Source: an uncultured Staphylococcaceae bacterium | GTDB lineage: Bacteria; Bacillota_I; Bacilli_A; ML615J-28; CAG-313 | NCBI GenBank assembly: GCA_964507405.1 | Contig: CAZDPJ010000002.1 | Span: 13,233-77,232 of the forward strand | Length of the DNA stretch: 64,000 nt | Direction of reading: 5' to 3' | Shown: piece after piece, positions 22,862 through 41,415 of the stretch | How positions within the stretch are numbered: the first letter of the stretch is position 1 | Layout of the letters: each line of letters starts with the position of its first letter | Position numbers and translations under genes: made by a program | Notes under the pieces: generated by a model | What the model was told of the DNA's origin: nothing | Seen by the model: only the letters and a program-made list of their open reading frames with translations | Database searches by the model: none

Positions 22862-22955
22862 CTTGCCACCTCTTAAGTAATTATATCATAAAAGATAGTT
22901 TTATTCCATTATTTTTTAATCTTTATACGTAATATTTTTTAAAGAGGTGATATAC

Positions 22956-23435
22956 TTGAAAAGAATATTAGTTTTATTATTGTTCTTCCTTTTAGTTGGA
23001 TGTAGTGATGAAGATATATATATACCTCCATCTAATACATTAGATCAAGAATTAGTTATTGTTGAAATTAAAGGAGCTGTAAAGTATCCTGGAGTATATG
23101 AAGTTAGTAGTAATGCCATCATTAAAGATATCATTGATCTTGCTGGGGGAGTGACAAATCTTGCTAACTTAGATAGTATAAATTTAGCATCAAAAATAGA
23201 GAGTAATCAGTTAATTAATATTCCATATAAAAATTCAGTTTCTAATTTAATTAATATTAATACCGCAAGTTTAGCAGAGTTAACTACGCTCGAAGGAATT
23301 GGTAATTCTAAAGCATTAGCCATTATTAAGTACCGTAATGAAATGGGATTATTTACAAGTATTGAAGACTTAAAAAAAGTAAAAGGTATTGGTGAAGGTT
23401 TATTTGAAAAGATTAAAGCGAATATTACGATTTAA
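22956..23435 (+). CDS. comEA: Competence protein ComEA (membrane/lipid-anchored HhH DNA receptor)
   Basis: TTG start 6 nt after SD agaggtg. Signal with LLVGC. SLBB-like VEIKGAVKYPGVYEV. HhH motifs INTASLAELTTLEGIGNSKA and VKGIGEGLFEKI. Confidence 0.85.
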   Translation: MKRILVLLLFFLLVGCSDEDIYIPPSNTLDQELVIVEIKGAVKYPGVYEVSSNAIIKDIIDLAGGVTNLANLDSINLASKIESNQLINIPYKNSVSNLININTASLAELTTLEGIGNSKALAIIKYRNEMGLFTSIEDLKKVKGIGEGLFEKIKANITI

Positions 23436-25599
23436 TGATTTTGTAGGTAATTTTTATTTAATTGGACTTGGGGTTATATTAGGTCTTTTAGTTATAATTA
23501 GATTTAATATTCTATATTTAATTATCTTTATTTTGTATCTTTTATATTTATTTATAAAGTCATATAAATATGCAATAGTTACAATAATACTATTTTTATT
23601 TCTTTTATTAAACCTAGGTATTAGATATATAAAATATAATAAAAAAGAATCAAATACTGTAAACTTACAAGGAGTTATTGTTTCTGTTAAAGAAAAAACA
23701 AATAGCAATCAAATAATAATTAAATGTAATGGTTTAAAATATCTTTTTTATGATGAAACAAAATCATTAAAACTTGGTGATAATATTAATGTTAGGGGCA
23801 ATCTTAGTAATAATGAATCCAATCATATTCCCTATTTATTTAATTATTCCCTTTATTTAAAAGAAAACAATATTAAAGGAGTTATTAATAATCCTGAATA
23901 TAAAAAAATAAATTCATCAGTTTCAATATATACTCTTAATAGATTAATCAATGATTCATTAAATGCACGATTTAAAGGCAATACTGCCTCATTTTTAAAA
24001 GCTTTGTTAGTAGGTGAAACAAATACATTAGGTGAAGAATTAAGTGAAGATATTAGAAAGGTAGGTATTGGTCATTTATTTGTAATATCAGGATTACATA
24101 TGAATGTACTCGCAATGATTATTACTAAAATATTAAAACTTTTTAAAGTAAAGACTAGTTTTATTGATTATATTATTATTTTCTTTTTTATAATTTATTA
24201 TTTTATAACATTAGGTATGGTTTCAATATTAAGGGTATTACTGACCTTCATACTTTCTACCATTAATAAAAAAAATAAATTATTACTTTCTAGTTTAGAT
24301 ATATATATAATTTCAATTATTTTTATATTATTAGTTAATCCATATTATCTAGTAAATTATTCTTTTCTTTTAACTTATATTATTTCAACATCTCTTGTTA
24401 TAATTAGTCCATTATTAAAATTTAAAGGATTTAAGGGAAGTATTTTAAATAATATTATAATGAGTGTAAATAGTATATTAGTTACGTTACCAATTATTAT
24501 TAATATTAGTCCTACAATTAATTTCTTATCAATCATCTATAATTTATTTTATATTCCATTTATAAGCTATATTCTTTTACCATTTTCAATAATTGTCTTA
24601 ATCTTTTCTTTTTTAAGTCCTATCTATGAACTATTATTATCAGTCTTTATTAAAAGTACATCTTTTTTAAGTAATATCAATTTATTAAATATTAGTTTTT
24701 CAAGTATAAGTATCATTTTACCAGTAATATATTATTTATTATATTTAGTAATTGTTTTATTACTAATTAATAAAATAAAAGGAAAAATAAGAATATCTTT
24801 TTTTATACTGTTTAGTTTAATTATTATTATTTGGTGTAACTATAGTTACATAAATATGAACGATGAAATATATTTTTTAGATTTACCAAAAGGAGAAAGT
24901 ACTGTTATCATAAAAGCCTTTAATGAGGCCAATATTCTAATTGATACTGGTGAAAATGTGAATAATGATTTAGAGTTATTTTTAAAGAAAAAAGGAATAA
25001 AAAGATTAGATTATGTTTTTATAAGTCATAGTGATAGTGATCATAATGGTAGACTGCCCTATTTAATTAAAGCCTTTAAAATAAAAAATATTGTAATTAG
25101 TAAATATGATGAAATTACTTATGAAATATGTATAAGAAATAATTATAAAGGCAATATTATCAAAGTAAAAGCAGATGATAAAATAATCTTTAAAGATATA
25201 GTATTTGAGATACTTTCACCTAGTAAAAACTATAATTCACCAAATAATAATAGTGTCGTTATGAAAACTACGGTTTTTAATAAAAAAATCTTGTTTACTG
25301 GAGATATTGAAAAAGAAGTAGAAAGTACTTTATTAAATAAAGTAACGTTTAATATTGATATTTATAAAATACCCCATCATGGTTCACTTACATCAAGTAG
25401 TAGTATATTTGTAAATAAACTTAACTATAAGTATGCGGTGTGCATGAGTGGATACCGAAATACCTTTGGATTACCAAATATGATAGCAATAAATAGGTAT
25501 GAAAAAGAAAAAGTCCTCCTAACTAAAAATAAGAGAACTATTTATTTTAAGAAGAAATGGTTTAAAAAAAATATAGCATTAACAGATATTATGTATTAA
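23389..25599 (+). CDS. comEC: DNA internalization channel ComEC (competence + MBL domains)
   Basis: Polytopic membrane core with GIGHLFVISGLHM. C-terminal MBL domain (ISHSDSDHNG, IPHHGS). Start uncertain: TTG at 23389 or 23404, overlapping the comEA 3' end. Confidence 0.85.
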   Translation: MVKVYLKRLKRILRFNDFVGNFYLIGLGVILGLLVIIRFNILYLIIFILYLLYLFIKSYKYAIVTIILFLFLLLNLGIRYIKYNKKESNTVNLQGVIVSVKEKTNSNQIIIKCNGLKYLFYDETKSLKLGDNINVRGNLSNNESNHIPYLFNYSLYLKENNIKGVINNPEYKKINSSVSIYTLNRLINDSLNARFKGNTASFLKALLVGETNTLGEELSEDIRKVGIGHLFVISGLHMNVLAMIITKILKLFKVKTSFIDYIIIFFFIIYYFITLGMVSILRVLLTFILSTINKKNKLLLSSLDIYIISIIFILLVNPYYLVNYSFLLTYIISTSLVIISPLLKFKGFKGSILNNIIMSVNSILVTLPIIINISPTINFLSIIYNLFYIPFISYILLPFSIIVLIFSFLSPIYELLLSVFIKSTSFLSNINLLNISFSSISIILPVIYYLLYLVIVLLLINKIKGKIRISFFILFSLIIIIWCNYSYINMNDEIYFLDLPKGESTVIIKAFNEANILIDTGENVNNDLELFLKKKGIKRLDYVFISHSDSDHNGRLPYLIKAFKIKNIVISKYDEITYEICIRNNYKGNIIKVKADDKIIFKDIVFEILSPSKNYNSPNNNSVVMKTTVFNKKILFTGDIEKEVESTLLNKVTFNIDIYKIPHHGSLTSSSSIFVNKLNYKYAVCMSGYRNTFGLPNMIAINRYEKEKVLLTKNKRTIYFKKKWFKKNIALTDIMY

Positions 25600-25724: not shown

Positions 25725-27383
25725 ATGTTTGGTTCATTTATAAAAGAAAAAAGACAAGAAAAAAATTATTCACAAAAAGATTTAGCAGAACTGTTATTCA
25801 TTACAGAAAGTGCTGTAAGTAAATGGGAAAGGGGAATTACATATCCAGATATTACATTAATTCATGATATATGTCGAGTATTAGATATTACTGAACATGA
25901 ACTAATTGAATCAACTAATGATGTTAATTATCGGAAAATGAAAAAAGATGCACATAAATTTAATAAACTTAAAAAAATTCTTTTTTGGATAATGAATATA
26001 TCATATATTCTTGGAATTTTAGTTTGCTTTATTGTAAATATTGCATGCTTTCATACGCTATCGTGGTTTTTTATAGTTCTTTCTTCAATTTTAGTTGCAT
26101 ATTCATTTTGTCCAACCCTAACTTGGATTTATCCGAAATATAAACTAGTTATTTTTAGTATTACAACATATGTTAGTTTAGTCATTTTATTTTTGACTTG
26201 TAGTATATATTTTTCTAATTATTGGTTTATGATAGCATCTATTAGTGTTTTACTGGGTTATTTTATTGTGCTTTTCCCAATAATGTTTAAAAAACAAAAA
26301 GGATATTTAGAAATTGATAAATATAAATTCTTATCTAAATTCTTTTTATTGATCTATAGTGGTGGAATCTTTATTATTACATTATTATTACTAGTATCAA
26401 TATATTGTTATACAAAATTTAATCTATTAATGGGCATTCTTATTTTATTGACTGTATTTATTATTCCAATATTTTTAGGACTATTAAAAGGATTTAATGT
26501 TAAAAATAATATTATATTAATAATTATTCTTATAATTATTACTTTAATAATAATATTTATAGTATTAAATACTATATTATCGGTTATTCATAATAGTTCA
26601 AAAGAAAATAAATCGATAAAGATTAATGAAGTAACAAAAGAAATAGTTGTTGATTGTGATATTTATAATATAAATTTATATCTATCAAAAGAAAATGTAA
26701 TTTATTTTGATGAATATAAAAAAATAAAAATTGATATCAAAGAAGAAAATGAAAGTATATATATAAAAGAAATTGATAATCGTAATATATTTGAGACATT
26801 ATTTAACAATTTTAACAGGCCAAGTATTGATATATATTTAACAAATGATATGATAAGTTCTTTAGATATAAATGTTTCAACTGGCGATATTAAAGTAAAT
26901 AAGGGTTTTAATTTTGATAATATAAAAGTTAAAAATTCAACTGGTAATATTTTATTATCATGCAACGTAGACAATAAATTAGAAGTTGAAAATAGAACAG
27001 GTAATATTATTATTAATAATTCTACGATATTAGGTAATACCATAATTAATTCAAAAACCGGTAAAATTGACGTATATAATGTAAATACTGCTTCAATTAA
27101 AATTGAAACTAAAACTGGTAATACGAAGTTATTAAATACAATTATTAACAATTCCATCTATCTTACCGCGTCAACTGGAAATGTAATTTTAGAAGATGTT
27201 GATGCGGGGGACATATATGTTAAAGTAACAACTGGAAATATTGAAGGAACCTTATTATCGGAAAAAATATTTAGTGTAGAGTCATCAACTGGTAAAATAA
27301 ATGTTCCGGAATCCTATACTGGTGGTAGATGTAAGTTAATTACATCAACCGGAAATATAAATATTAAGTATAAAGAAAAATAA
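25725..27383 (+). CDS. Membrane-tethered XRE-family HTH regulator with 7 TM helices and a C-terminal DUF4097 beta-strand-repeat domain
   Basis: HTH: FIKEKRQEKNYSQKDLAELLFITESAVSKWERGITYPD. About seven hydrophobic helices. Nine repeats of the (S/T/K)TG(N/D/K)I motif typical of DUF4097. Confidence 0.75.
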   Translation: MFGSFIKEKRQEKNYSQKDLAELLFITESAVSKWERGITYPDITLIHDICRVLDITEHELIESTNDVNYRKMKKDAHKFNKLKKILFWIMNISYILGILVCFIVNIACFHTLSWFFIVLSSILVAYSFCPTLTWIYPKYKLVIFSITTYVSLVILFLTCSIYFSNYWFMIASISVLLGYFIVLFPIMFKKQKGYLEIDKYKFLSKFFLLIYSGGIFIITLLLLVSIYCYTKFNLLMGILILLTVFIIPIFLGLLKGFNVKNNIILIIILIIITLIIIFIVLNTILSVIHNSSKENKSIKINEVTKEIVVDCDIYNINLYLSKENVIYFDEYKKIKIDIKEENESIYIKEIDNRNIFETLFNNFNRPSIDIYLTNDMISSLDINVSTGDIKVNKGFNFDNIKVKNSTGNILLSCNVDNKLEVENRTGNIIINNSTILGNTIINSKTGKIDVYNVNTASIKIETKTGNTKLLNTIINNSIYLTASTGNVILEDVDAGDIYVKVTTGNIEGTLLSEKIFSVESSTGKINVPESYTGGRCKLITSTGNINIKYKEK

Positions 27384-27473: not shown

Positions 27474-27737
27474 ATGGCAAACATTAAACAACAAATGAAA
27501 CGAGATATTACTAATAACAAAAAAAGATTATTAAATGCATCATTTAATTCATCTTTAAAAACAGCAGTAAAAGCTTTTGAAGCAGCTCTTTTATCTGGTG
27601 ATAAAGCAAAAGCTACTGAAGCATATAGTTTTGCTTGTAAAAAATTAGACAAATCTTTAGCTAAAGGTATTAATCATAAAAACTATGTTGCTAGACAAAA
27701 ATCTCGTTTAGCAAGTGCTTTAAATAAAATGGCATAA
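27474..27737 (+). CDS. rpsT: 30S ribosomal protein S20
   Basis: MANIKQQMKRDITNNKKRL.., 87 aa, basic. SD ggaggtg. Confidence 0.95.
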   Translation: MANIKQQMKRDITNNKKRLLNASFNSSLKTAVKAFEAALLSGDKAKATEAYSFACKKLDKSLAKGINHKNYVARQKSRLASALNKMA

Positions 27738-27749
27738 GAAATAAAATTT

Positions 27750-27788
27750 ACCCTTTAAATCTAATTTGATTTAGAGGGTTATTTTTTT
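27750..27788 (+). terminator. rpsT terminator
   Basis: ACCCTTTAAATC-loop-GATTTAGAGGGT followed by a T-run. Confidence 0.8.
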
Positions 27789-27857
27789 AATTAAATTTTA
27801 AGTTATGATGATATAATTTAAAAAAGATATACTATATTTAAAATATGGAGAAGTAGT

Positions 27858-29075
27858 ATGTTCAAAAAATTGAGAATTAAATTTATATGTATTGCTATGC
27901 TTTCGGTTATTATTGTTTTAGCACTGGTAATTGGTGGAATTAATATTAATAATTATCATGCTATAACAACAAAGGCAGATGAAACCTTAAATATAATGAA
28001 AAATAATAATGGGAAATTTCCATTAAGAATACCAAATAAAAATAATTATGAAGAGTTTTCTAATCCTGAGGCTTTTTATGAAACAAGATACTTTACAATA
28101 ATTTTAAGCAAAAATAAGGAGGTAGTTAGAATTGATCTTGAAAACGTTGCTTCGATTGATTCTGAATCCGCTTATAATTATGCTCTTAAAATTGATAATA
28201 AAACCAAAGAAAATGGCTTTGTTGATAATTACCGGTATTTAAAAGTAAATTTAAGTGAAGATAAAGTTATATATATGTTCTTAGATTGTAGTAGAAGTTT
28301 AAATATCTATTATCAATTTTTACAAAGTAGTATTATGATGAGTTTAATGGTAATTATTTTAGTCCTTGTTTTAGTAATTTTCTTTTCTATGATTATTACT
28401 AAACCTGTTGCTAGAACATATCAAAAACAACAACAATTTATAACTAATGCAAGTCATGATTTAAAAACCCCATTAACTATTATTAATGGTAGTTGTGAAA
28501 TATTAGAATATAATAATACTGATAATGAATGGATTGAAACAATAAAAGAACAAGTAAATAAATTAACAAGTTTAACTAATAAATTAGTAATACTTGCTAA
28601 AATGGATGAGACAATGGCTGATTGCCCAATGACGGAGTTTAATTTATCATCGACAATCGAAGATGTAATTAGTCCTTATCAACAATTATTAGTAAGTAAT
28701 AATAAAAAGTTTTCATTTAATATTTCCAGTAATATTTCTTACAAAGGTAATGAATTATTAATTAGACAAATGTTACAGTTATTACTTGATAATGCTTTAA
28801 AATATTCGGATATTGAAGGCAATATAATATTAACATTATCTAAAACTAATCGAAATATTAAGTTACAATTATCTAATACAACAAGTAATATTCCGGTTGG
28901 TAATTTAGATAAATTATTTGAAAGATTTATAAGACTTGATTCTTCAAGAAATAGTCAAACGGGAGGACATGGAATAGGTCTTTCAGTTGTTAAAACGATA
29001 GTTGATATTCATAAAGGAAAAATAAAAGCATATTCAGAAGATGGAAAGACAATCACCTTTATGATTACTTTATAA
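27858..29075 (+). CDS. Sensor histidine kinase with no adjacent response regulator
   Basis: Two TM helices around a ~130-aa external region. H-box FITNASHDLKTPLT, N-box LLDNALKYS, G-box GGHGIGLSVVKTIV. Confidence 0.85.
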   Translation: MFKKLRIKFICIAMLSVIIVLALVIGGININNYHAITTKADETLNIMKNNNGKFPLRIPNKNNYEEFSNPEAFYETRYFTIILSKNKEVVRIDLENVASIDSESAYNYALKIDNKTKENGFVDNYRYLKVNLSEDKVIYMFLDCSRSLNIYYQFLQSSIMMSLMVIILVLVLVIFFSMIITKPVARTYQKQQQFITNASHDLKTPLTIINGSCEILEYNNTDNEWIETIKEQVNKLTSLTNKLVILAKMDETMADCPMTEFNLSSTIEDVISPYQQLLVSNNKKFSFNISSNISYKGNELLIRQMLQLLLDNALKYSDIEGNIILTLSKTNRNIKLQLSNTTSNIPVGNLDKLFERFIRLDSSRNSQTGGHGIGLSVVKTIVDIHKGKIKAYSEDGKTITFMITL

Positions 29076-29089
29076 AGTGAGGTAGAAAA

Positions 29090-32086
29090 ATGAGAAAGAA
29101 GTTTTTATTAATTCTAATCTTTAGTTTTTGTTTACTTGCAATATGTAGTTGTAGTAACGAATGCAATGGTGAACATGACTATGATGATGGTGAAATAATT
29201 AGTAGTCCTACTTGTACTACTGATGGTAAAATGCTTTATACTTGTAAAAATTGCAAGAAAAAACTAACAAAAACCATTTCTTCTTTAGGCCATGAAAAAG
29301 AAGAAGAATGGACTAGTGATGATATGTATCATTATCATTTATGTAAGAATTGCCATGAATATAAATTTGATGAGGCTGCGCATGAATATGATGATTCTAA
29401 AACTTGTATATGTGGAAATAAAAAAGAACATAATCTTTATCAAAAACCAACAGCGATAAATACTATCTTTAGTTATACTGGTGAAGATATTGTTTTTACT
29501 CCAAGTGGCTTTGATGAAAATATAATGAGTATTACTGGTAATATTCAAAAAGAATGTGGAACATATTTTGTTATAATAAGTTTAAAAGATAAAGTAAATA
29601 GTATGTGGAGTGATTTAACAACCGATGATGTTATTATTAGTTATCAAATTACTCTTGATAAGGTTGTATTAAATATCCCTCAAAAAAGTAGTTTAACTTA
29701 TACTTATACGGGTCAAAGTATAACTTATTTACCTCAAGGATTTGATTCTTCGATTATGTCGATAACTGGTAATAACAAGATTAATGCGGGGGAATATGAA
29801 GTAATAGTTAAAATTAAAGATTCTAGTAAGTATGAATTTGAAAATGGTAGTAATGAAGTTAAATATCAATTTATAATTGAAAAAGTACAATTGCTTAAGC
29901 CTACAATTATTCAAACAAATAATTATTATACAGGTAATGATATAACAGTAAAATTAAATAATTTTGATGAATCTTTAATGAATATAACGGGAAATACAAA
30001 AAAAGAAGTTGGTAATTATGAAGTTGAAATATCTTTAAAAGATAACACTAACTATGAATGGGATGATGAAACTATTCAAAATATTACACTTTACTGGGAA
30101 ATTATTGAACAAGAACTTTTGTATAAGATAACATCAATTGATTCAAATAAAATAAAAATTAATTATAGTAGTAATGATGAAACCTCTGAAATGATAATCG
30201 AATTACCTATTAATTCAAGTTATGAATTAAATCAAGAAACAGGAGAAATCGCTTTTACTTATAGCCTAGAAAGTAGTGAAGCTATTGTTTATAATTTTAC
30301 AGGAAATTATTATGGTAGTATCACTTTTAATATTAATGAAGAAACTTCATTAGAAATTGAATTAGATAACTTTACGCTTACAAGTTATTTAAACTGTCCG
30401 TTATATATTGAAAGTGCGAATGAAGTTGATATTTCATCAAAGAAAAATACTGAAAATTTTATATATGATAATCGTGAAGAAGAAGAATCACTTAAAGGTG
30501 CCATTTACAGTACTTGTGATTTGAAAATTAAAGGAACCGGATTTTTAAGTGTTAATTCTAAAAATAATAATGGTATTCATTCTAAAGATGATCTAAAAAT
30601 TCAAAAAGTTACATTATATATAAATTCAGTTGATAACTGTTTAAAAGGAAATGATGAAGTAAAAATATCATCGGGAATATTAACATTAATTTCTAGAAAA
30701 GGTGATGGTATAAAAACATCTAATACTTCACTTTCAAAAAAGAATAATCAAAAAGGTGATGTAATAATTGATGATGGCACAATTAATATCTATTCCGCAT
30801 GTGATGCTATTGACGCTGCACACTCAATAATTATTAATGGTGGAAATATTAATATTAATACTGATAAATTTTCTGAATATTCTGAGGAAGTAACAAAGGT
30901 AAATAATAATTGTTATTATATTAGATCTACTTCTAATTATTATTCTTATTCAATTTATTATTATAATACTTTAGAAGATGGCGTTTGGGCTAATTCTAAT
31001 GGTATAACTAAAACCGTTAATGCGGGGAGAGAAAAATACTATTATTATGAAATTAATAGACCTGAAGGATATAGTTATTTAAAAGTATATATATATAATT
31101 CATCACAAACTCAAGGTCAAAGTAGTAATTACTATAAAGTATCATCACAACTTAGCATTAATAATAATTATGATACAATTGCATATGGTTCTAACAGACC
31201 TGGTGGAAGTAGCTCGTTTAGTTGGACAACATATGAAACTGTACCAAGTATGGGACCTGGTGGGGGCATGGGACCAGGGGGTATGCAAGAAGGAAATCCT
31301 AATAAAGGTGATTATTCAACTAAGGGATTAAAGTCAGATAATGAAATAACGATAAATGGTGGTGTTATTAATATAAAATCATATGATGATTGCATTCATA
31401 CTAATAATGATGTAACACTAGAAAGTGGTAATATTCCAACTGGTAATATTATAATAAATAATGGTATCTTAAATCTTTATTCTAATGATGATGGTATTCA
31501 TGGTGATGGCATAGTCACTATTAATAATGGAACCATTGATGTAGTAAATAGTTATGAAGGTATTGAAGGTATTAATGTTATTATAAATGGTGGTAATATT
31601 AGTGTGCTATCAAGTGATGATGGAGTTAATGCAACATCAACTAGCGGTATTGGTATTGAGATTAATGGTGGCATAATATATATATTTGCTGGAGGAGATG
31701 GAGTAGATTCTAATAGTCAAAGTTCATATGAAGGCATTTTATTTAGTGGTGGTAAATCGGTAATAATATCATATGGCAGAAGTGATTCTTCACTTGATAC
31801 TGAACGTGGATATAAGTATACTGGTGGATGCGTGATAGGAATAGGCATGTCAGGGGGAATGAGTAGTGAAGCCACTCATTGTAATAATTTTTCATCAATT
31901 GGTTTATCCAAAACAATTAGTTTATCAAAAGACAATTATCTATGTTTAAGTGATGTTGCAACCATTAAAATACCTTATACAATGAATGCACTTGTTGTTG
32001 TTCTTGGTAATAATGAAACTGACATTACTACTTCATCTTCATCAAGTCTGACATTTGATAAAAATGGAATTTCTTATTTAAATTAA
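29090..32086 (+). CDS. 998-aa mosaic surface lipoprotein: Cys/His-rich module, three Ig-like repeats, Cthe_2159/DUF4353-like beta-helix
   Basis: Lipobox LLAICSC. Three ~75-aa repeats (..IMSITGN..G.YEV..). Beta-helix rungs NNGIHSKDDLKI, GDGIKT, DDCIHTNNDV, DDGIHGDG, DDGVNA, GDGVDS. MGPGGGMGPGGM linker. Confidence 0.7.
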   Translation: MRKKFLLILIFSFCLLAICSCSNECNGEHDYDDGEIISSPTCTTDGKMLYTCKNCKKKLTKTISSLGHEKEEEWTSDDMYHYHLCKNCHEYKFDEAAHEYDDSKTCICGNKKEHNLYQKPTAINTIFSYTGEDIVFTPSGFDENIMSITGNIQKECGTYFVIISLKDKVNSMWSDLTTDDVIISYQITLDKVVLNIPQKSSLTYTYTGQSITYLPQGFDSSIMSITGNNKINAGEYEVIVKIKDSSKYEFENGSNEVKYQFIIEKVQLLKPTIIQTNNYYTGNDITVKLNNFDESLMNITGNTKKEVGNYEVEISLKDNTNYEWDDETIQNITLYWEIIEQELLYKITSIDSNKIKINYSSNDETSEMIIELPINSSYELNQETGEIAFTYSLESSEAIVYNFTGNYYGSITFNINEETSLEIELDNFTLTSYLNCPLYIESANEVDISSKKNTENFIYDNREEEESLKGAIYSTCDLKIKGTGFLSVNSKNNNGIHSKDDLKIQKVTLYINSVDNCLKGNDEVKISSGILTLISRKGDGIKTSNTSLSKKNNQKGDVIIDDGTINIYSACDAIDAAHSIIINGGNININTDKFSEYSEEVTKVNNNCYYIRSTSNYYSYSIYYYNTLEDGVWANSNGITKTVNAGREKYYYYEINRPEGYSYLKVYIYNSSQTQGQSSNYYKVSSQLSINNNYDTIAYGSNRPGGSSSFSWTTYETVPSMGPGGGMGPGGMQEGNPNKGDYSTKGLKSDNEITINGGVINIKSYDDCIHTNNDVTLESGNIPTGNIIINNGILNLYSNDDGIHGDGIVTINNGTIDVVNSYEGIEGINVIINGGNISVLSSDDGVNATSTSGIGIEINGGIIYIFAGGDGVDSNSQSSYEGILFSGGKSVIISYGRSDSSLDTERGYKYTGGCVIGIGMSGGMSSEATHCNNFSSIGLSKTISLSKDNYLCLSDVATIKIPYTMNALVVVLGNNETDITTSSSSSLTFDKNGISYLN

Positions 32087-32103
32087 ACCATAATTCTTTA
32101 AAA

Positions 32104-32134
32104 ACACTTAATAGTTCATCTATTAGGTGTTTTT
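32104..32134 (+). terminator. Rho-independent terminator, near-identical to the one at 9425-9457
   Basis: ACACTTAATAG-loop-CTATTAGGTGT followed by T5. Confidence 0.75.
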
Positions 32135-32182
32135 AATAATATTTAAAAATTAATTTAATATAATGTATATATAGTCTTTATG

Positions 32183-32211
32183 TTGACAAAAAAAGAAAAA
32201 GAGAGTAAAAT
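32183..32211 (+). promoter_or_regulatory. Sigma-A-type promoter for the galU operon
   Basis: TTGACA-17 nt-TAAAAT. Confidence 0.5.
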
Positions 32212-32246
32212 TATTATTAACCGGGTTAATTATAAGGAGGATTAAA

Positions 32247-33107
32247 ATGTCTAATAATATAAAAAAGGCCATTATTCCAGTTGCTGGTAAAGGTACTAGA
32301 TTTTTACCTGTTACTAAAAGTATTTGTAAAACAATGTTTCCCATTATTAATAAACCAACAATTCAGTATTTAATTGAAGAATGTAATTTTGTGGGGATTG
32401 AAGAAATATATATCGTCATTAATGAATGTCAAAAAGATATAATCGATTATTTTGATATCAATAGTAAATATTATGAGGATTTAGACAATATTCCTACGAC
32501 ACTTAAAAGTTTAAATGATATAATTCATAAAGTTAAGATTACCTTTGTAATCCAAGAACATCCAAGAGGATTAGGAGATGCAATCCTATGTTGTGAAAAA
32601 TATATAAATAACGAAGACTTTTGTGTGCTTTTAGGTGATGATATCGTTTTAAAATCTGGTAATACTTCTTATGGAATCGGTGACTTATTAAATCAATATC
32701 ATATATATCCTGCCTATTATATAGGGGTAAAACAAGTTGATTTTAAGGACTGTTATAAATATGGTATTGTAAAAGTAGAAGAAAACAGTTCAAATATGAA
32801 AGTAATTGATATGGTGGAAAAACCTAAAGATAATCCACCATCGAACTTTGCTGGAGTGGGAAGATATATTCTTAAAAACAATGTTTTTAAATATTTGAAA
32901 GAAATAAATATAGATTGTAATCATGAATTAATGTTAACAGATGCTTTTATTAAAGCATGTAAGATGGAAAGTGTTTTTGCTTATGAATTTAATGGTGAAA
33001 GATTTGATATAGGTGATCATGCTGGATATGTGATGGCAACAATTGCTTATGCTTTAAATGATGATGAAATTAAAAATAAAATCTATGAATATATAAAGGG
33101 GATTTAA
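32247..33107 (+). CDS. galU: UTP--glucose-1-phosphate uridylyltransferase
   Basis: KAIIPVAGKGTRFLPVTK...NKPTIQYLIEE and RGLGDAIL motifs. 286 aa. Confidence 0.85.
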   Translation: MSNNIKKAIIPVAGKGTRFLPVTKSICKTMFPIINKPTIQYLIEECNFVGIEEIYIVINECQKDIIDYFDINSKYYEDLDNIPTTLKSLNDIIHKVKITFVIQEHPRGLGDAILCCEKYINNEDFCVLLGDDIVLKSGNTSYGIGDLLNQYHIYPAYYIGVKQVDFKDCYKYGIVKVEENSSNMKVIDMVEKPKDNPPSNFAGVGRYILKNNVFKYLKEINIDCNHELMLTDAFIKACKMESVFAYEFNGERFDIGDHAGYVMATIAYALNDDEIKNKIYEYIKGI

Positions 33108-33108
33108 A

Positions 33109-33567
33109 ATGGTAGTATTAGATGAATTATTAAAAGGCTTTACAAAAATAAAAAAACTATTTTCTAAAAATTTAACTTCAACAATTACGCCAAGTGATTA
33201 CTTATTACTTTTAACAATTGAAGAAGAAGGAATTTATGATGAAGTTTATAAGAAAAAAACAATAAGCATAAGTAAACTTGCTGAAAAACTTGAAATGTCA
33301 AAGCCTGCTCTTACAAAAGAAACCAAAAGACTTGAAAGGTTAGAATATATTAAAAAAACAACATTACTTCATAATTTAAAACAACGATATGTAATGCTTA
33401 CTGATAAAGGGGCTGAAAAATTAATTACAGAACATGATAATATATATTTACTTCCTAATTTAGTTGTTGAAAAATTAGGTGAAGAAAATAGCAAAACTTT
33501 TGTTAATTTACTAAATCAAATTACTGATATAATTATTAAATCAAGCAAGAAAGGAAATAATTTATGA
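33109..33567 (+). CDS. MarR-family transcriptional regulator
   Basis: Winged-helix pattern ISISKLAEKLEMSKPALTKETKRLERLEYIKK. 152 aa. Stop overlaps the next start (ATGA). Confidence 0.7.
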   Translation: MVVLDELLKGFTKIKKLFSKNLTSTITPSDYLLLLTIEEEGIYDEVYKKKTISISKLAEKLEMSKPALTKETKRLERLEYIKKTTLLHNLKQRYVMLTDKGAEKLITEHDNIYLLPNLVVEKLGEENSKTFVNLLNQITDIIIKSSKKGNNL

Positions 33568-34703
33568 TAATAACAATAGTAGCAGATGTATTAGGTGAAG
33601 AAAATAATGGTACAACCATTACAACTAAACGTTTAATTAAGCATTTAAAAGATCGAGGTCATACAGTTAAAGTGGTATCACCTTTAAAAACAAATGAAGA
33701 AGGATTTTTTACATTACCAACTAGGTCATTTGGCCCTTTTAATGGTTATGTTGCTAAAAATGGAGTTGAACTTGCTAAACCTAAAAAAGATATATTGGAA
33801 GAAGCAATTAAAGGTTCTGATTTAGTCCATATTATGTTACCTTTTAAAACAGGAATTAAAGCATTAAAGATTGCTGAAGAAATGAATATTCCTGTAACTA
33901 GTGCTTGTCACTGTCAAGCTGAAAATGTAACAGCTCATGTTAAAATGCAAAATGTAAAGTGGGTTAATAATTTTATTTATCGTCGCTTTTATCGTAAGTT
34001 TTATAAAAATGTTCCTTATGTTCATTGTCCTAGTGAATTTATAGCTAGAACTGTTAAAGCAAATGGATACGATATGAATTTAAGAGTAATATCAAATGGA
34101 GTTGAACCAATATATCGTAAAAAGAATGTAGAAAGAAAAAAGGAATTAGAAAACAAAATATGTATTTTAACTATTGGTCGCCTTTCTCGAGAAAAAAGAC
34201 ATGACTTATTAATTAAAGCAATTCAACTTTCTAAATATAGAGATAATATTCAGTTATATATTGCTGGATGTGGACCACTTGAAAAGAAGACAAGAAAACT
34301 TGGAGAATCATTACCAAATAAACCAATTATAAATTTTTATTCACAAAAAGATTTAGTTGAATTAATAAATAATGCGGATTTGTATGTTCATCCTGCTGAT
34401 ATTGAAATTGAAGCTATTGCTTGTCTTGAGGCAATAACTTGTGGCGTAGTACCTATTATTTCGAATAGTTCTCGTTCAGCTACTAATGCGTTTGCCCTTG
34501 ATGAATATAATTTATTTGAGGCAGGAAATCCTTCAGATTTAGCGAAAAAAATAGATTATTTAATTGACCATCAAGAATTTAAGAATGCTTTATCTGAGGA
34601 ATATTTGGAATATAGTAAACAATTCCAAATTGAAAACTGTATAACTAAGATGGAAGAAATGTTTGAGGAAGCTGTAAGTAATTATGAAAAACAAAAATCC
34701 TAA
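33564..34703 (+). CDS. GT4-family glycosyltransferase, probable glycolipid (glycosyl-diacylglycerol) synthase
   Basis: GT-B layout. IGRLSREKRHD and EX7E motif (EIEAIACLE). Confidence 0.65.
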   Translation: MIITIVADVLGEENNGTTITTKRLIKHLKDRGHTVKVVSPLKTNEEGFFTLPTRSFGPFNGYVAKNGVELAKPKKDILEEAIKGSDLVHIMLPFKTGIKALKIAEEMNIPVTSACHCQAENVTAHVKMQNVKWVNNFIYRRFYRKFYKNVPYVHCPSEFIARTVKANGYDMNLRVISNGVEPIYRKKNVERKKELENKICILTIGRLSREKRHDLLIKAIQLSKYRDNIQLYIAGCGPLEKKTRKLGESLPNKPIINFYSQKDLVELINNADLYVHPADIEIEAIACLEAITCGVVPIISNSSRSATNAFALDEYNLFEAGNPSDLAKKIDYLIDHQEFKNALSEEYLEYSKQFQIENCITKMEEMFEEAVSNYEKQKS

Positions 34704-35481
34704 AGTTTTTTATTATGAAGATGAAACCAAAGATGATTTCTTTCATACAAAAACTAATCTCAATGTCACTATTGATGAAAATTATAAATATCTAATTACT
34801 AATCCCTTTAGAAAAATAATCAGCTTTTTGTTATATTATTTAATTGCTGCACCTATTTTATATATAGAGGGAAAAATATTTCAAGGCATTAAAATAAAGG
34901 GAAAGAAAAAATTAAAACATCTTAAAAAAACCGGATATATTATGTATGCTAATCACACAAGTGCAAGAGATGCCTTTTTAGGTCATGTTTTCTTGGCATT
35001 TCCTAAAAGAACATATATAATTGGCAATAAAGATGCGATGTCAATCTTTTTTGTCCGCCGACTTACTAAAGATTTAGGTACACTTCCCGTTCCAGATACT
35101 CCTCTTGCTTTAAAAAATTTAAATAACACAATATCTAAATTAATGCAAAAGAAGAAAGCTTTAATGATATATCCAGAAGCCCATATATGGCCATATTATA
35201 CTAGGGTTAGACCATTCCCTAATACAAGTTTTCGCTTTGCTGCTAGTAATAATGTTCCTTGTGTGCCAGTTGCTGTTACATACCAAAAACCAAAGGGAAT
35301 ATATAAACTAAGAAAAAGGCCACAAATGGTAGTTTATATTGGTAATCCTATTTATCCTAATAAAGATTTATCCATTAAAGAAAATGCAACCTTTTTACGA
35401 GATGAAACTTATAATTATATTAATGATATTACTAATAAATATTCAAATGTTGAATATTATAAATATGTTAAAAAGAGCTAA
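34684..35481 (+). CDS. LPLAT/PlsC-family acyltransferase
   Basis: HX4D motif (NHTSARD) and YPEAH block. N-terminal membrane segment. Overlaps the GT4 gene by 20 nt. Confidence 0.7.
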   Translation: MKNKNPKVFYYEDETKDDFFHTKTNLNVTIDENYKYLITNPFRKIISFLLYYLIAAPILYIEGKIFQGIKIKGKKKLKHLKKTGYIMYANHTSARDAFLGHVFLAFPKRTYIIGNKDAMSIFFVRRLTKDLGTLPVPDTPLALKNLNNTISKLMQKKKALMIYPEAHIWPYYTRVRPFPNTSFRFAASNNVPCVPVAVTYQKPKGIYKLRKRPQMVVYIGNPIYPNKDLSIKENATFLRDETYNYINDITNKYSNVEYYKYVKKS

Positions 35482-40320: not shown

Positions 40321-40437
40321 AAGTTACCTCCTTTTGTTTAATATATTATATCATTATTTAATAAAAAAATATAGATTAATGCAAAAAAAATAATAAAAAA
40401 ATTATTTTTGGAGAAAATAAATCAAGAGGTGATATAT

Positions 40438-41415
40438 TTGAAAAAGAAAGAACAAATTAAATGGAATGTTCGTACAGATCTTGCGTATGATGAAGTAATA
40501 ACAAATCAAAGAGAATTTCCTGATTTAATACAAAGTGAGGAAAAATTATTAGATATACCAATATACAAATGTATTGTTGGAAAAGAATCTTCAAAAATGA
40601 TTAATAAAAAAGAAGGTATATATTATACAATTGATTTATCTAATCTTGATTTTCATGATGCAACTATTTGTAAAAATATTGAATATGCTTTATCTGATAT
40701 TTTAAAAAGATTTATTGATCATTATTCTTTAAAAAATACAAAAGGATTATTAGTTGGTCTTGGTAATATTAATGTTACTCCTGATGCCTTAGGACCATAT
40801 GTGATGGATAATGCTATTGTTACAAGACATTTATTTAAGATAGGTAGTGTTAGTAACGGATTTAGTGAAGTTAGTGCGATTAGTCCTGGGGTTATGGGAA
40901 CAACCGGAATTGAAACATTTGATATTATTAAAGCGGTAAAAGATAAAATTGATGTAGATTATTTAATTGTTGTTGATGCACTTGCTTCTAATTCAACAAA
41001 AAGAGTAAATAGAACTATTCAAATTACTGATACTGGAATTAGCCCTGGTTCTGGAGTTGGAAATAAAAGAAAAGAACTAAGTATGAAAAGTATTGGTCTT
41101 CCCGTCTTTGCAATTGGGGTACCAACAGTTGTAGATGCAATCACCATAACTAATGATACAATTAATCATGTTATTAATTATTTAAATAAAGAAGTTAAAA
41201 ATAATAATTCTAATGAATTTTTACTAGGACAAATCGGTAAATTAACAGAAGCAGAAAAAAGAGCGTTAATGCAAGAAGTATTATCACCTAATGGTTATAA
41301 TTTAATGGTAACTCCAAAAGAAGTAGATGAAGATATCGAAGATTTATCAAAAATAATTGCGATGGGAATAAATCTCGCTTTACATGAGGGATTACACTAT
41401 AAGTTAACTGAATAG
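40438..41415 (+). CDS. gpr: Spore germination protease GPR
   Basis: From the TTG at 40438 (SD agaggtg 8 nt upstream) the product begins LKKKEQIKWNVRTDLA, like Bacillus Gpr MKKSEL..VRTDLA as I recall it. VGLGNINVTPDALGP, TGISPGSGVGNKR and MVTPKEVD motifs. The track start at 40408 lacks an SD. Confidence 0.9.
   Translation: MKKKEQIKWNVRTDLAYDEVITNQREFPDLIQSEEKLLDIPIYKCIVGKESSKMINKKEGIYYTIDLSNLDFHDATICKNIEYALSDILKRFIDHYSLKNTKGLLVGLGNINVTPDALGPYVMDNAIVTRHLFKIGSVSNGFSEVSAISPGVMGTTGIETFDIIKAVKDKIDVDYLIVVDALASNSTKRVNRTIQITDTGISPGSGVGNKRKELSMKSIGLPVFAIGVPTVVDAITITNDTINHVINYLNKEVKNNNSNEFLLGQIGKLTEAEKRALMQEVLSPNGYNLMVTPKEVDEDIEDLSKIIAMGINLALHEGLHYKLTE

Follow-up and report, generated by a model that had tools for sequence, protein, structure and literature searches.

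The DNA analysed here, referred to as the window, is a stretch of 64,000 nucleotides (nt; 64 kb) from an uncultured Staphylococcaceae bacterium (assembly GCA_964507405.1, contig CAZDPJ010000002.1). On its forward strand it carries a two-gene unit that encodes a sensor histidine kinase (HK) of 405 amino acids (aa; positions 27858-29075) and, 14 nt further on, a Cthe_2159-type surface lipoprotein of 998 aa (29090-32086). Comparison with related loci suggests that this unit is a regulator-less derivative of a cassette, widespread in Bacillota, in which a response regulator (RR), the kinase and a Cthe_2159 protein are encoded in that order, and that the kinase signals through a regulator encoded elsewhere. 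We give this reading a probability of about 60%. A first-pass annotation of the same DNA had proposed instead that the kinase and the lipoprotein form a sensor/ligand-capture pair and do not represent a classical two-component operon.

The key comparison is with a related locus, L093 (NCBI GCA_963648435.1), which has the synteny of the window. There, genes for a pseudouridine synthase, comEA, comEC and rpsT are followed by an OmpR-type regulator of 225 aa, the kinase and the Cthe_2159 protein, and the regulator occupies the place where the window has only 120 nt. Because L093 carries this gene at that place within a shared gene order, the regulator was cleanly deleted in the window lineage. 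The orphan state of the kinase is thus secondary, and ancestrally the lipoprotein gene followed a classical OmpR-type RR-HK operon. The earlier statement that a classical two-component operon is not represented here finds no support, given L093 and the adjacent regulators found in 78 of 80 loci of kinase homologs. The order rpsT-HK-Cthe_2159 without a regulator was found in three lineages, namely the window with L091 and L107, L001, and L097-L100; the kinases of the latter two are 66-69% identical to that of the window. The RR-HK-Cthe_2159 triad also occurs at other chromosomal places (L005/6, L009 and L095/6). Most likely, the regulator was lost once, at the base of the window/L001/L097 clade.

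The edges of the missing segment can be read from the DNA alignment. The left anchor of the conserved synteny is rpsT (ribosomal protein S20; 27474-27737), the upstream neighbour of the kinase gene, which was recognized from its open reading frame (ORF), from Ribosomal_S20p in syntenic loci and from a 3' end conserved in the alignment. It is followed by its own intrinsic terminator (27750-27789), as had been annotated; the terminator scan places a hairpin with a 12-bp stem at 27750-27779, then a T-run. This terminator is kept in the window, L091, L001, L093 and L094. Further downstream, a candidate extended -10 element of the TGnTAnAnT type, TGATATAAT (27809-27817), was read from the sequence. 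An element of this type stands at the same aligned position in loci without the regulator (window, L091 and L001) and in loci with it (L093 and L094), and it may be an inheritance from the ancestral RR-HK operon. The rpsT 3' end, the terminator and the extended -10 element are thus kept in both types of locus, and the regulator ORF alone is missing, a segment of about 675 bp between the rpsT terminator and the kinase ribosome-binding site. The Shine-Dalgarno sequence of the kinase gene, GGAG (27847-27850), is located where the former regulator ORF would have ended on the right; in L093, a matching TTGGAGA sits within the final codons of the regulator gene.

The kinase and lipoprotein genes are predicted to form one transcript. 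Their 14-nt spacer (29076-29089) contains a Shine-Dalgarno sequence, GAGG (29079-29082), and the absence of a terminator from this gap, noted at first pass, agrees with the terminator scan, which placed hairpins only after rpsT and after the lipoprotein gene. The latter hairpin belongs to an intrinsic terminator (32098-32136) that would close the transcript. In the regulator-less clade the spacer measures 14-19 nt, as against 97-200 nt in regulator-bearing relatives. In the spacer of those relatives, promoter-like matches occur at chance level and a terminator-like hairpin was found only in L095. This difference in spacing and the hairpin of L095 make it probable that the two-component system ancestrally had the lipoprotein gene as an output, or was at least coupled to it. 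An artefact of the genetic code was rejected, as the ORFs are intact under translation table 11. Two antisense ORFs (29339-29548 and 29729-29914) were also rejected; both are short and lie within the lipoprotein gene.

The kinase gene was characterized by Pfam, alignments, AlphaFold2 (AF2) modelling, Foldseek and substitution rates. Pfam places HisKA at aa 191-251 (E 1.5e-13) and HATPase_c at aa 298-403 (E 1.3e-20), which bears out the first identification of a histidine kinase from the motifs SHDLKTPL and GGHGIGLS. Its catalytic motifs are intact (H-box SHDLKTPL with His200, N-box with N312, G-box GGHGIGLS), and His200, D311/N312 and G369-G374 are invariant across 66 kinase homologs. Class I (HisKA) kinases are defined by a dimerization and histidine phosphotransfer (DHp) domain with a phospho-accepting His and a GHKL ATP-binding domain with N, G1 and G2 boxes, all of which are present; the adjacent cognate regulator typical of the class is absent from the window. 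The protein consists of a first transmembrane segment (approximately aa 9-31), an extracytoplasmic alpha/beta domain (approximately aa 32-156), a second transmembrane segment (approximately aa 157-180), the DHp domain and the catalytic and ATP-binding (CA) domain. The AF2 model (mean predicted local distance difference test score, pLDDT, 76.9) has a long first transmembrane helix, a small alpha/beta extracytoplasmic fold at approximately aa 50-145 and a continuous helix from the second transmembrane segment into the DHp domain, and neither the model nor the domain layout includes a HAMP domain. In Foldseek, the cytoplasmic core resembles HK853, CpxA and WalK (target TM-score 0.53-0.71 for HK853 and CpxA), and the top match of the whole model is a WalK-YycH integrative model, by way of the kinase core. 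The kinase belongs to no named NCBIfam equivalog (RppB, PnpS, PhoR, WalK, VanS and others), the best scores being those of RppB (158 bits, cutoff 400) and PhoR (157 bits, cutoff 334).

The observation that no response-regulator gene flanks the kinase on either side holds for the whole 64 kb. Among window ORFs of at least 60 aa, phmmer searches with CheY and PhoB (E<=10) detected no receiver domain, and a hidden Markov model (HMM) of the cassette's own regulators had no match anywhere in the window. One candidate for a relocated regulator, protein P0268, was rejected, as its locus (L101) has a guanine-plus-cytosine (GC) content of 48.5% and no blastn match to the window, and so belongs to a different organism. 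L101 itself has the order RR-HK-GH32, with a kinase of 431 aa that is 46% identical to the window kinase over its full length.

The missing regulator raises the possibility that the locus is a decaying remnant, in which a functionless kinase is kept by chance or as a 5' leader and the lipoprotein gene uses the old promoter. No regulator was found in 64 kb, and some strains of other lineages (L105, L029 and L081) have the kinase or the regulator gene split. Against this, the ratio of nonsynonymous to synonymous substitution rates (dN/dS) of the kinase between the window and L091 is 0.13 (dS approximately 0.25-0.29), comparable to the neighbouring housekeeping genes for a GalU-like protein (0.20) and a family 4 glycosyltransferase (GT4; 0.05). 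By region, the values are 0.06 for the DHp domain, 0.13 for the CA domain and 0.19 for the sensor domain; the lipoprotein gene gives 0.16. In addition, both ORFs are full-length and all catalytic motifs of the kinase are retained in the three regulator-less lineages, at the kinase identities of 66-69% given above (dS approximately 0.95 between the window and L001). Both genes are therefore under purifying selection. The low dN/dS and the intact ORFs in three lineages exclude decay, the kinase was rejected as a pseudogene on its dN/dS, and we consider a remnant extremely unlikely. The maintenance of both genes by selection suggests that the kinase probably signals through a regulator encoded elsewhere.

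Changes in the domain that contacts the partner are compatible with a distal regulator. We compared the six sequences of the regulator-less clade at the 133 alignment columns with a conservation of at least 85% in regulator-linked kinases. Eight of the 133 columns are substituted in all six sequences, and five of these lie in the DHp domain (D197N, E201D, A211G, S247A/T and E252T/S), an enrichment that has a modest p-value (Fisher p=0.033) and consists of only eight substitutions. Residue A211 is at His+11, the position of A271 in HK853, which is among the residues mutated to rewire kinase-regulator specificity according to the title of PDB entry 4JAS. The clade-specific changes fit a re-targeting of the kinase to a new partner.

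One form of such re-targeting would be recruitment to a non-cognate pathway, for example phosphorylation or dephosphorylation of Spo0A, so that a surface or nutrient cue would feed into sporulation. Orphan HisKA kinases that act on Spo0A are established in Clostridia. Like them, the window kinase is a membrane-bound HisKA protein without an adjacent regulator in a spore-former. The window has the gene content of spore-forming Bacillota (gpr, recU and comEA/comEC); gpr lies at 40408-41415, and SpoIIE and Cse60 are encoded in related contigs. The concentration of clade-specific changes in the DHp recognition helix also agrees with recruitment. However, the window kinase descends from an OmpR-partnered operon and its DHp domain is almost unchanged, with only about five diagnostic differences from the OmpR-partnered consensus. 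Signalling through Spo0A would also be a special case of the distal-regulator step. We regard it as very unlikely.

Taken as a derivative of the RR-HK-Cthe_2159 cassette, the unit can be explained as follows. A regulator ORF of about 675 bp was deleted, with the promoter, the kinase and the downstream gene retained. The kinase would still be an active kinase/phosphatase that senses through its extracytoplasmic domain of about 125 aa and passes its signal to a non-adjacent regulator, which could be a relocated ortholog, a paralog or conceivably Spo0A. The lipoprotein would be a surface protein of the polymer-binding or adhesin type, in which an immunoglobulin (Ig)-like stalk, made of a Cys/His module and three MBG-like domains, displays a beta-helix of the calcium-binding type. 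After the loss of the regulator, expression of the lipoprotein would have become tied to the kinase promoter.

Several points weigh against this reading. The available 64 kb contain no receiver domain, so we infer the distal regulator. When the L093 regulator was compared with the protein collection, most of the top 120 matches were 71-78% identical and none shared a contig with a regulator-less kinase; conservation within the family is too high for this comparison to discriminate. The enrichment in the DHp domain is small, and co-transcription and promoter use are predictions from sequence. Further, the kinase-lipoprotein pair has persisted in three lineages after the regulator was lost, which a direct partnership would explain equally well. 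The lipoprotein and the kinase may thus be direct sensory partners, although the data do not require this.

How far such a partnership is to be credited depends on how often the two genes occur together. On the kinase side, one genome per species was searched with a profile of the kinase family, the best 80 loci were annotated with purpose-built HMMs, and linkage was counted within 6.5 kb. An OmpR-type regulator adjoins the kinase in the 78 loci mentioned; in the other two, the locus is cut by a contig end (L050) or has no regulator (L072). A Cthe_2159 gene lies near the kinase in 33 of the 80, and a pair of VTC and DUF4956 genes without a detected Cthe_2159 gene in eight more, so that 41 of the 80 have either or both. 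The usual order in Clostridia is RR-HK-VTC-DUF4956-Cthe_2159. In nine loci, the VTC-DUF4956-Cthe_2159 module is divergent and upstream of RR-HK, a layout characteristic of regulated targets more than of co-sensors. Collinsella loci have RR-HK alone, and about half of the kinase homologs have no nearby Cthe_2159 gene.

On the lipoprotein side, metagenomes were scanned with a lipoprotein profile, which yielded 80 loci, 18 of them with at least approximately 7 kb on both sides. The two-component system of this family was found nearby in 11 of the 80, always including the regulator, and no kinase lies near the lipoprotein homolog in the remaining 69. Among the 18 well-flanked loci, five have this two-component system and 13 have no kinase. 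Lone lipoprotein homologs were also seen in L002-4, L007/8 and L010. Because most lipoprotein homologs have no nearby kinase, the lipoprotein needs no dedicated kinase. The association of the kinase family with Cthe_2159 proteins is real and recurrent, and it is not obligatory for the lipoprotein. Outside the window clade, the regulator always accompanies the kinase.

These counts bear directly on the proposal of a dedicated sensor/ligand-capture pair, in which the lipoprotein binds an extracellular polymer and presents the polymer, or its own occupancy state, to the kinase. Linkage to kinases, on which the proposal depended, is conserved in relatives (33 of 80 kinase loci beside Cthe_2159 and eight more beside VTC-DUF4956), and in each of the inspected closer relatives with the kinase, the next gene downstream encodes the lipoprotein. 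In addition, both genes have been kept together under purifying selection after the regulator was lost, both products face the outside (one by its lipobox, the other by its 125-aa extracytoplasmic domain), and the spacer has tightened to 14 nt. Obligatory pairing is weakened, however, by the lipoprotein loci without a kinase, by the kinase homologs without a nearby Cthe_2159 gene, Collinsella included, by the nine divergent layouts and by the terminator between the two genes in L095. Further, the Cys/His and MBG modules are missing from most kinase-linked homologs, so these variable N-terminal modules are not a conserved contact surface. We therefore consider a dedicated capture pair somewhat unlikely.

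In function, the nearest analogues of the window operon are two-component systems with an accessory lipoprotein encoded in the same operon, together with the orphan kinases of Clostridia. Extracytoplasmic co-sensors include LpqB for MtrB, YycH/I for WalK and SaeP for SaeS. The MtrAB-LpqB, WalRK-YycHI, SaeRS-SaePQ and CseABC operons likewise have a kinase gene followed by a gene for a lipoprotein or other extracytoplasmic protein. These systems retain their regulator, whereas the window operon does not. The window lipoprotein has no sequence or fold relation to LpqB, YycH/I, SaeP or CseA, and Pfam and NCBIfam gave no such match.

A close counterpart of the window operon is the cassette from which we derive it, RR-HK-(VTC-DUF4956)-Cthe_2159, in which the VTC and DUF4956 genes may be present or not. 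Its hosts are gut Clostridia, Erysipelotrichia-like Bacilli and relatives (L005, L009, L011-L036, L093, L095, L111-L118 and others). The cassette kinases are orthologous to the window kinase over the full length, including the sensor domain, at 44-54% identity; the lipoprotein core is orthologous as well, the gene order is the same, and L093 shares the chromosomal position. The window differs in the deleted regulator, in the absence of VTC and DUF4956, in a spacer reduced from 97-200 to 14 nt and in the DHp substitutions.

The VTC and DUF4956 genes form an association of their own. VTC (PF09359) is polyphosphate-polymerase-like and DUF4956 is a membrane protein. One or the other is present in 45 of the 80 lipoprotein-side loci, and both precede Cthe_2159 in L014-L036, L111-L190 and others (e.g. 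L031, 9170-12742), which points to a conserved three-gene envelope module of VTC, DUF4956 and Cthe_2159. Groups of VTC, DUF4956 and CotH genes adjoin Gram-positive pel exopolysaccharide loci (10.1101/768473), and such a group is found in NELoc-2 of Clostridium perfringens (PMC2879425). The VTC-DUF4956 pair is thereby connected in the literature with extracellular matrix loci. This connection concerns the wider family only, and none of VTC, DUF4956 and CotH was found in the window. In the literature on Cthe_2159, DUF4956, the VTC domain and CotH, we found no study linking them to a two-component system, and the RR-HK-(VTC-DUF4956)-Cthe_2159 cassette appears to be undescribed in the searchable literature. 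In a further scenario, the kinase and the lipoprotein would have been retained as a self-contained module once the regulator was gone, with the lipoprotein as a ligand-capturing co-receptor and the kinase rewired by A211G and neighbouring DHp changes to a different, non-adjacent regulator. The cassette of gut Bacillota would then be an undescribed envelope system whose dedicated two-component system controls a polyanion-binding surface beta-helix or senses through it, possibly in connection with extracellular polyphosphate or a matrix polymer. This scenario is unlikely in our judgement.

Related loci showed some further peculiarities. In L005 (13526-14080) and L009 (10654-11169), a small lipoprotein of 171-184 aa is encoded directly after the Cthe_2159 gene; it has Pro/Thr/Gly-rich repeats (TPPDIPTDGSG), no Pfam match and no counterpart in the window. 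Split genes were observed for comEC in L097 (7340-9525; intact in L098-L100), for the kinase in L105 (2044-3328) and for the regulator in L029 (7287-7994) and L081 (7208-7908). These strain-level splits may be pseudogenes or assembly errors.

The lipoprotein gene (29090-32086), assigned from Pfam Cthe_2159 and its lipobox, encodes a chain of recognizable modules. An AF2 model built from 31 homologs has a mean pLDDT of 86.3. The signal peptide and lipobox (…LLAICS|C21; 29090-29152) fit the bacterial lipoprotein pattern, as first proposed; the match to the PROSITE PS51257-type pattern (aa 11-21) makes C21, the second Cys of 'CSC', the lipidated residue, and this Cys is kept in at least 90% of the 31 homologs. 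A Cys/His-rich beta module follows (aa 22-115; 29153-29434), modelled as beta strands with a pLDDT of approximately 80. It comprises one full and one degenerate zinc-ribbon-like repeat of the form H-x12-C-x9-C-x2-C-x12-H, which also occurs in tandem in P0047, a Ruminococcus fn3 protein. Pfam-A has no family for this repeat, and at relaxed thresholds only zf-CHY appeared, below its threshold. A scan at E<=1e-3 detected the repeat (H…TC…TCxxC…GH) in 10,517 representative proteins, which reach 7,583 aa in length and as many as 50 copies each; it is presumably extracytoplasmic.

Three tandem Ig-like beta-sandwich repeats of about 75 aa each come next (aa 118-342; 29441-30115; pLDDT 83-92), at the place where the first annotation had them. 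They are 34-45% identical pairwise and have tandem-Ig matches in Foldseek. In Pfam they fall below the MBG thresholds (PF17883/PF18676/PF18887), the best being MBG_2 with E 0.23 and 12.5 bits against a cutoff of 25. They are nevertheless homologous to arrays in P0028 and P0029 (E 4e-27), the latter of which carries PF18887 MBG_3. The suggested relation to MBG domains thus stands as homology and not as Pfam membership, and we call the repeats MBG-like and interpret them as a stalk. In the alignment of homologs, only the closest relatives have the N-terminal Cys/His and MBG-like modules. A small beta domain (aa 343-397; 30116-30280; strands at 345-391, pLDDT approximately 90) caps the N-terminus of the beta-helix and is kept in closer homologs.

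The core of the protein is a right-handed parallel beta-helix of the Cthe_2159 type in two halves, the first at aa 398-600 (30281-30889; the best PF14262 stretch, pLDDT > 95) and the second at aa 739-900. The second half and a C-terminal beta-sandwich (aa 901-998) span 31304-32086 up to the stop codon (pLDDT > 90; further Cthe_2159 stretches). Cthe_2159 of Clostridium thermocellum is reportedly a polysaccharide-lyase-like, calcium-binding beta-helix that binds cellulose and polygalacturonic acid. The same core, as in the structures 4PEU and 4PHB, is present in the window lipoprotein. The beta-helix that had been proposed was recovered by Pfam Cthe_2159 (PF14262) with 219.3 bits (cutoff 25.8) in three stretches, by sequence comparison with PDB 4PEU (E 1.5e-21) and by fold comparison with 4PEU and 4PHB in Foldseek (target TM-score 0.72-0.75, 28-30% identity; E 4e-8 for 4PEU). 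NCBIfam has no model for the lipoprotein or for the VTC and DUF4956 proteins. Rungs of the form DD.(I/V)H, YEG.EG and DDG.N are invariant among homologs, and the acidic rungs DD.IH and DDG.N are conserved. Calcium-dependent binding of cellulose or pectic polysaccharide is putative for the lipoprotein.

Two elements interrupt the beta-helix. One is an inserted Tyr/Ser/Asn-rich beta-sandwich of 117 aa (aa 601-717; 30890-31240; strands at 608-713, pLDDT approximately 87-90), with 21 Tyr residues and no Pfam match even at relaxed thresholds. It is kept across the subfamily, including the Clostridia L031 and L023. The other is a disordered Gly-rich linker, VPSMGPGGGMGPGGMQEGNPN (aa 718-738; 31241-31303; pLDDT < 50), whose local GC-richness was rightly noted (54% GC in a gene of 27% GC). 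A linker at this position is kept in the family, including distant Clostridia. All parts of the mosaic described at first pass are therefore present; two of them, the Tyr-rich insert and the MGPGG linker, are shared across the subfamily and so not unique to this protein. Foldseek also gave weak CBM41-like matches that were not assigned to any particular domain.

In sum, the window lipoprotein is four times longer than Cthe_2159 and lipid-anchored, and it adds the Cys/His module, the three MBG-like domains, the 117-aa beta-sandwich, the Gly-rich linker and the C-terminal beta-sandwich. Cthe_2159-like beta-solenoids on stalks have been predicted as adhesive domains (PMC9210967). The modelled architecture suggests a stalk-plus-binding-domain surface protein of the fibrillar-adhesin type, and most of its mosaic parts are standard modules that recur in many surface proteins.

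The surroundings of the operon, in a window of uniformly low GC content (27.5%), can be described briefly. Upstream, a gene at 25725-27383 between comEC and rpsT, present also in L107, combines an XRE-type helix-turn-helix, transmembrane segments and a DUF4097 'toastrack' domain. It is missing there in L001, L097-L100 and L093 and is therefore a lineage-specific insertion; the antisense ORF within it (26702-27157) looks spurious. The comEA-like gene (22947-23435) and comEC (23389-25599) overlap by 47 nt as listed, and the annotated start of comEC (TTG at 23389) probably lies too far upstream. Downstream, a unit at 32183-35481 begins with a near-consensus promoter (TTGACA-17-TAAAAT; 32183-32211) and encodes, in ORFs that overlap or abut, a GalU-like nucleotidyltransferase, a MarR regulator, a GT4 glycosyltransferase and an acyltransferase. 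The unit has the same synteny in L091 and L107 and looks like an operon for a cell-envelope glycolipid or glycopolymer.

For annotation, the message is that the locus represents a truncated classical two-component operon and not a new signalling architecture. More widely, one kinase/regulator family, Cthe_2159 surface proteins and VTC-DUF4956 are associated recurrently in many gut Bacillota, an association that is apparently unstudied and for which the literature searches gave no function. For the evolution of signalling, the locus is a clean, dated natural case of the origin of an orphan kinase, in which the regulator ORF was precisely excised and changes in the partner-recognition helix were later fixed. 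With a complete genome, it would offer a tractable case of partner rewiring.

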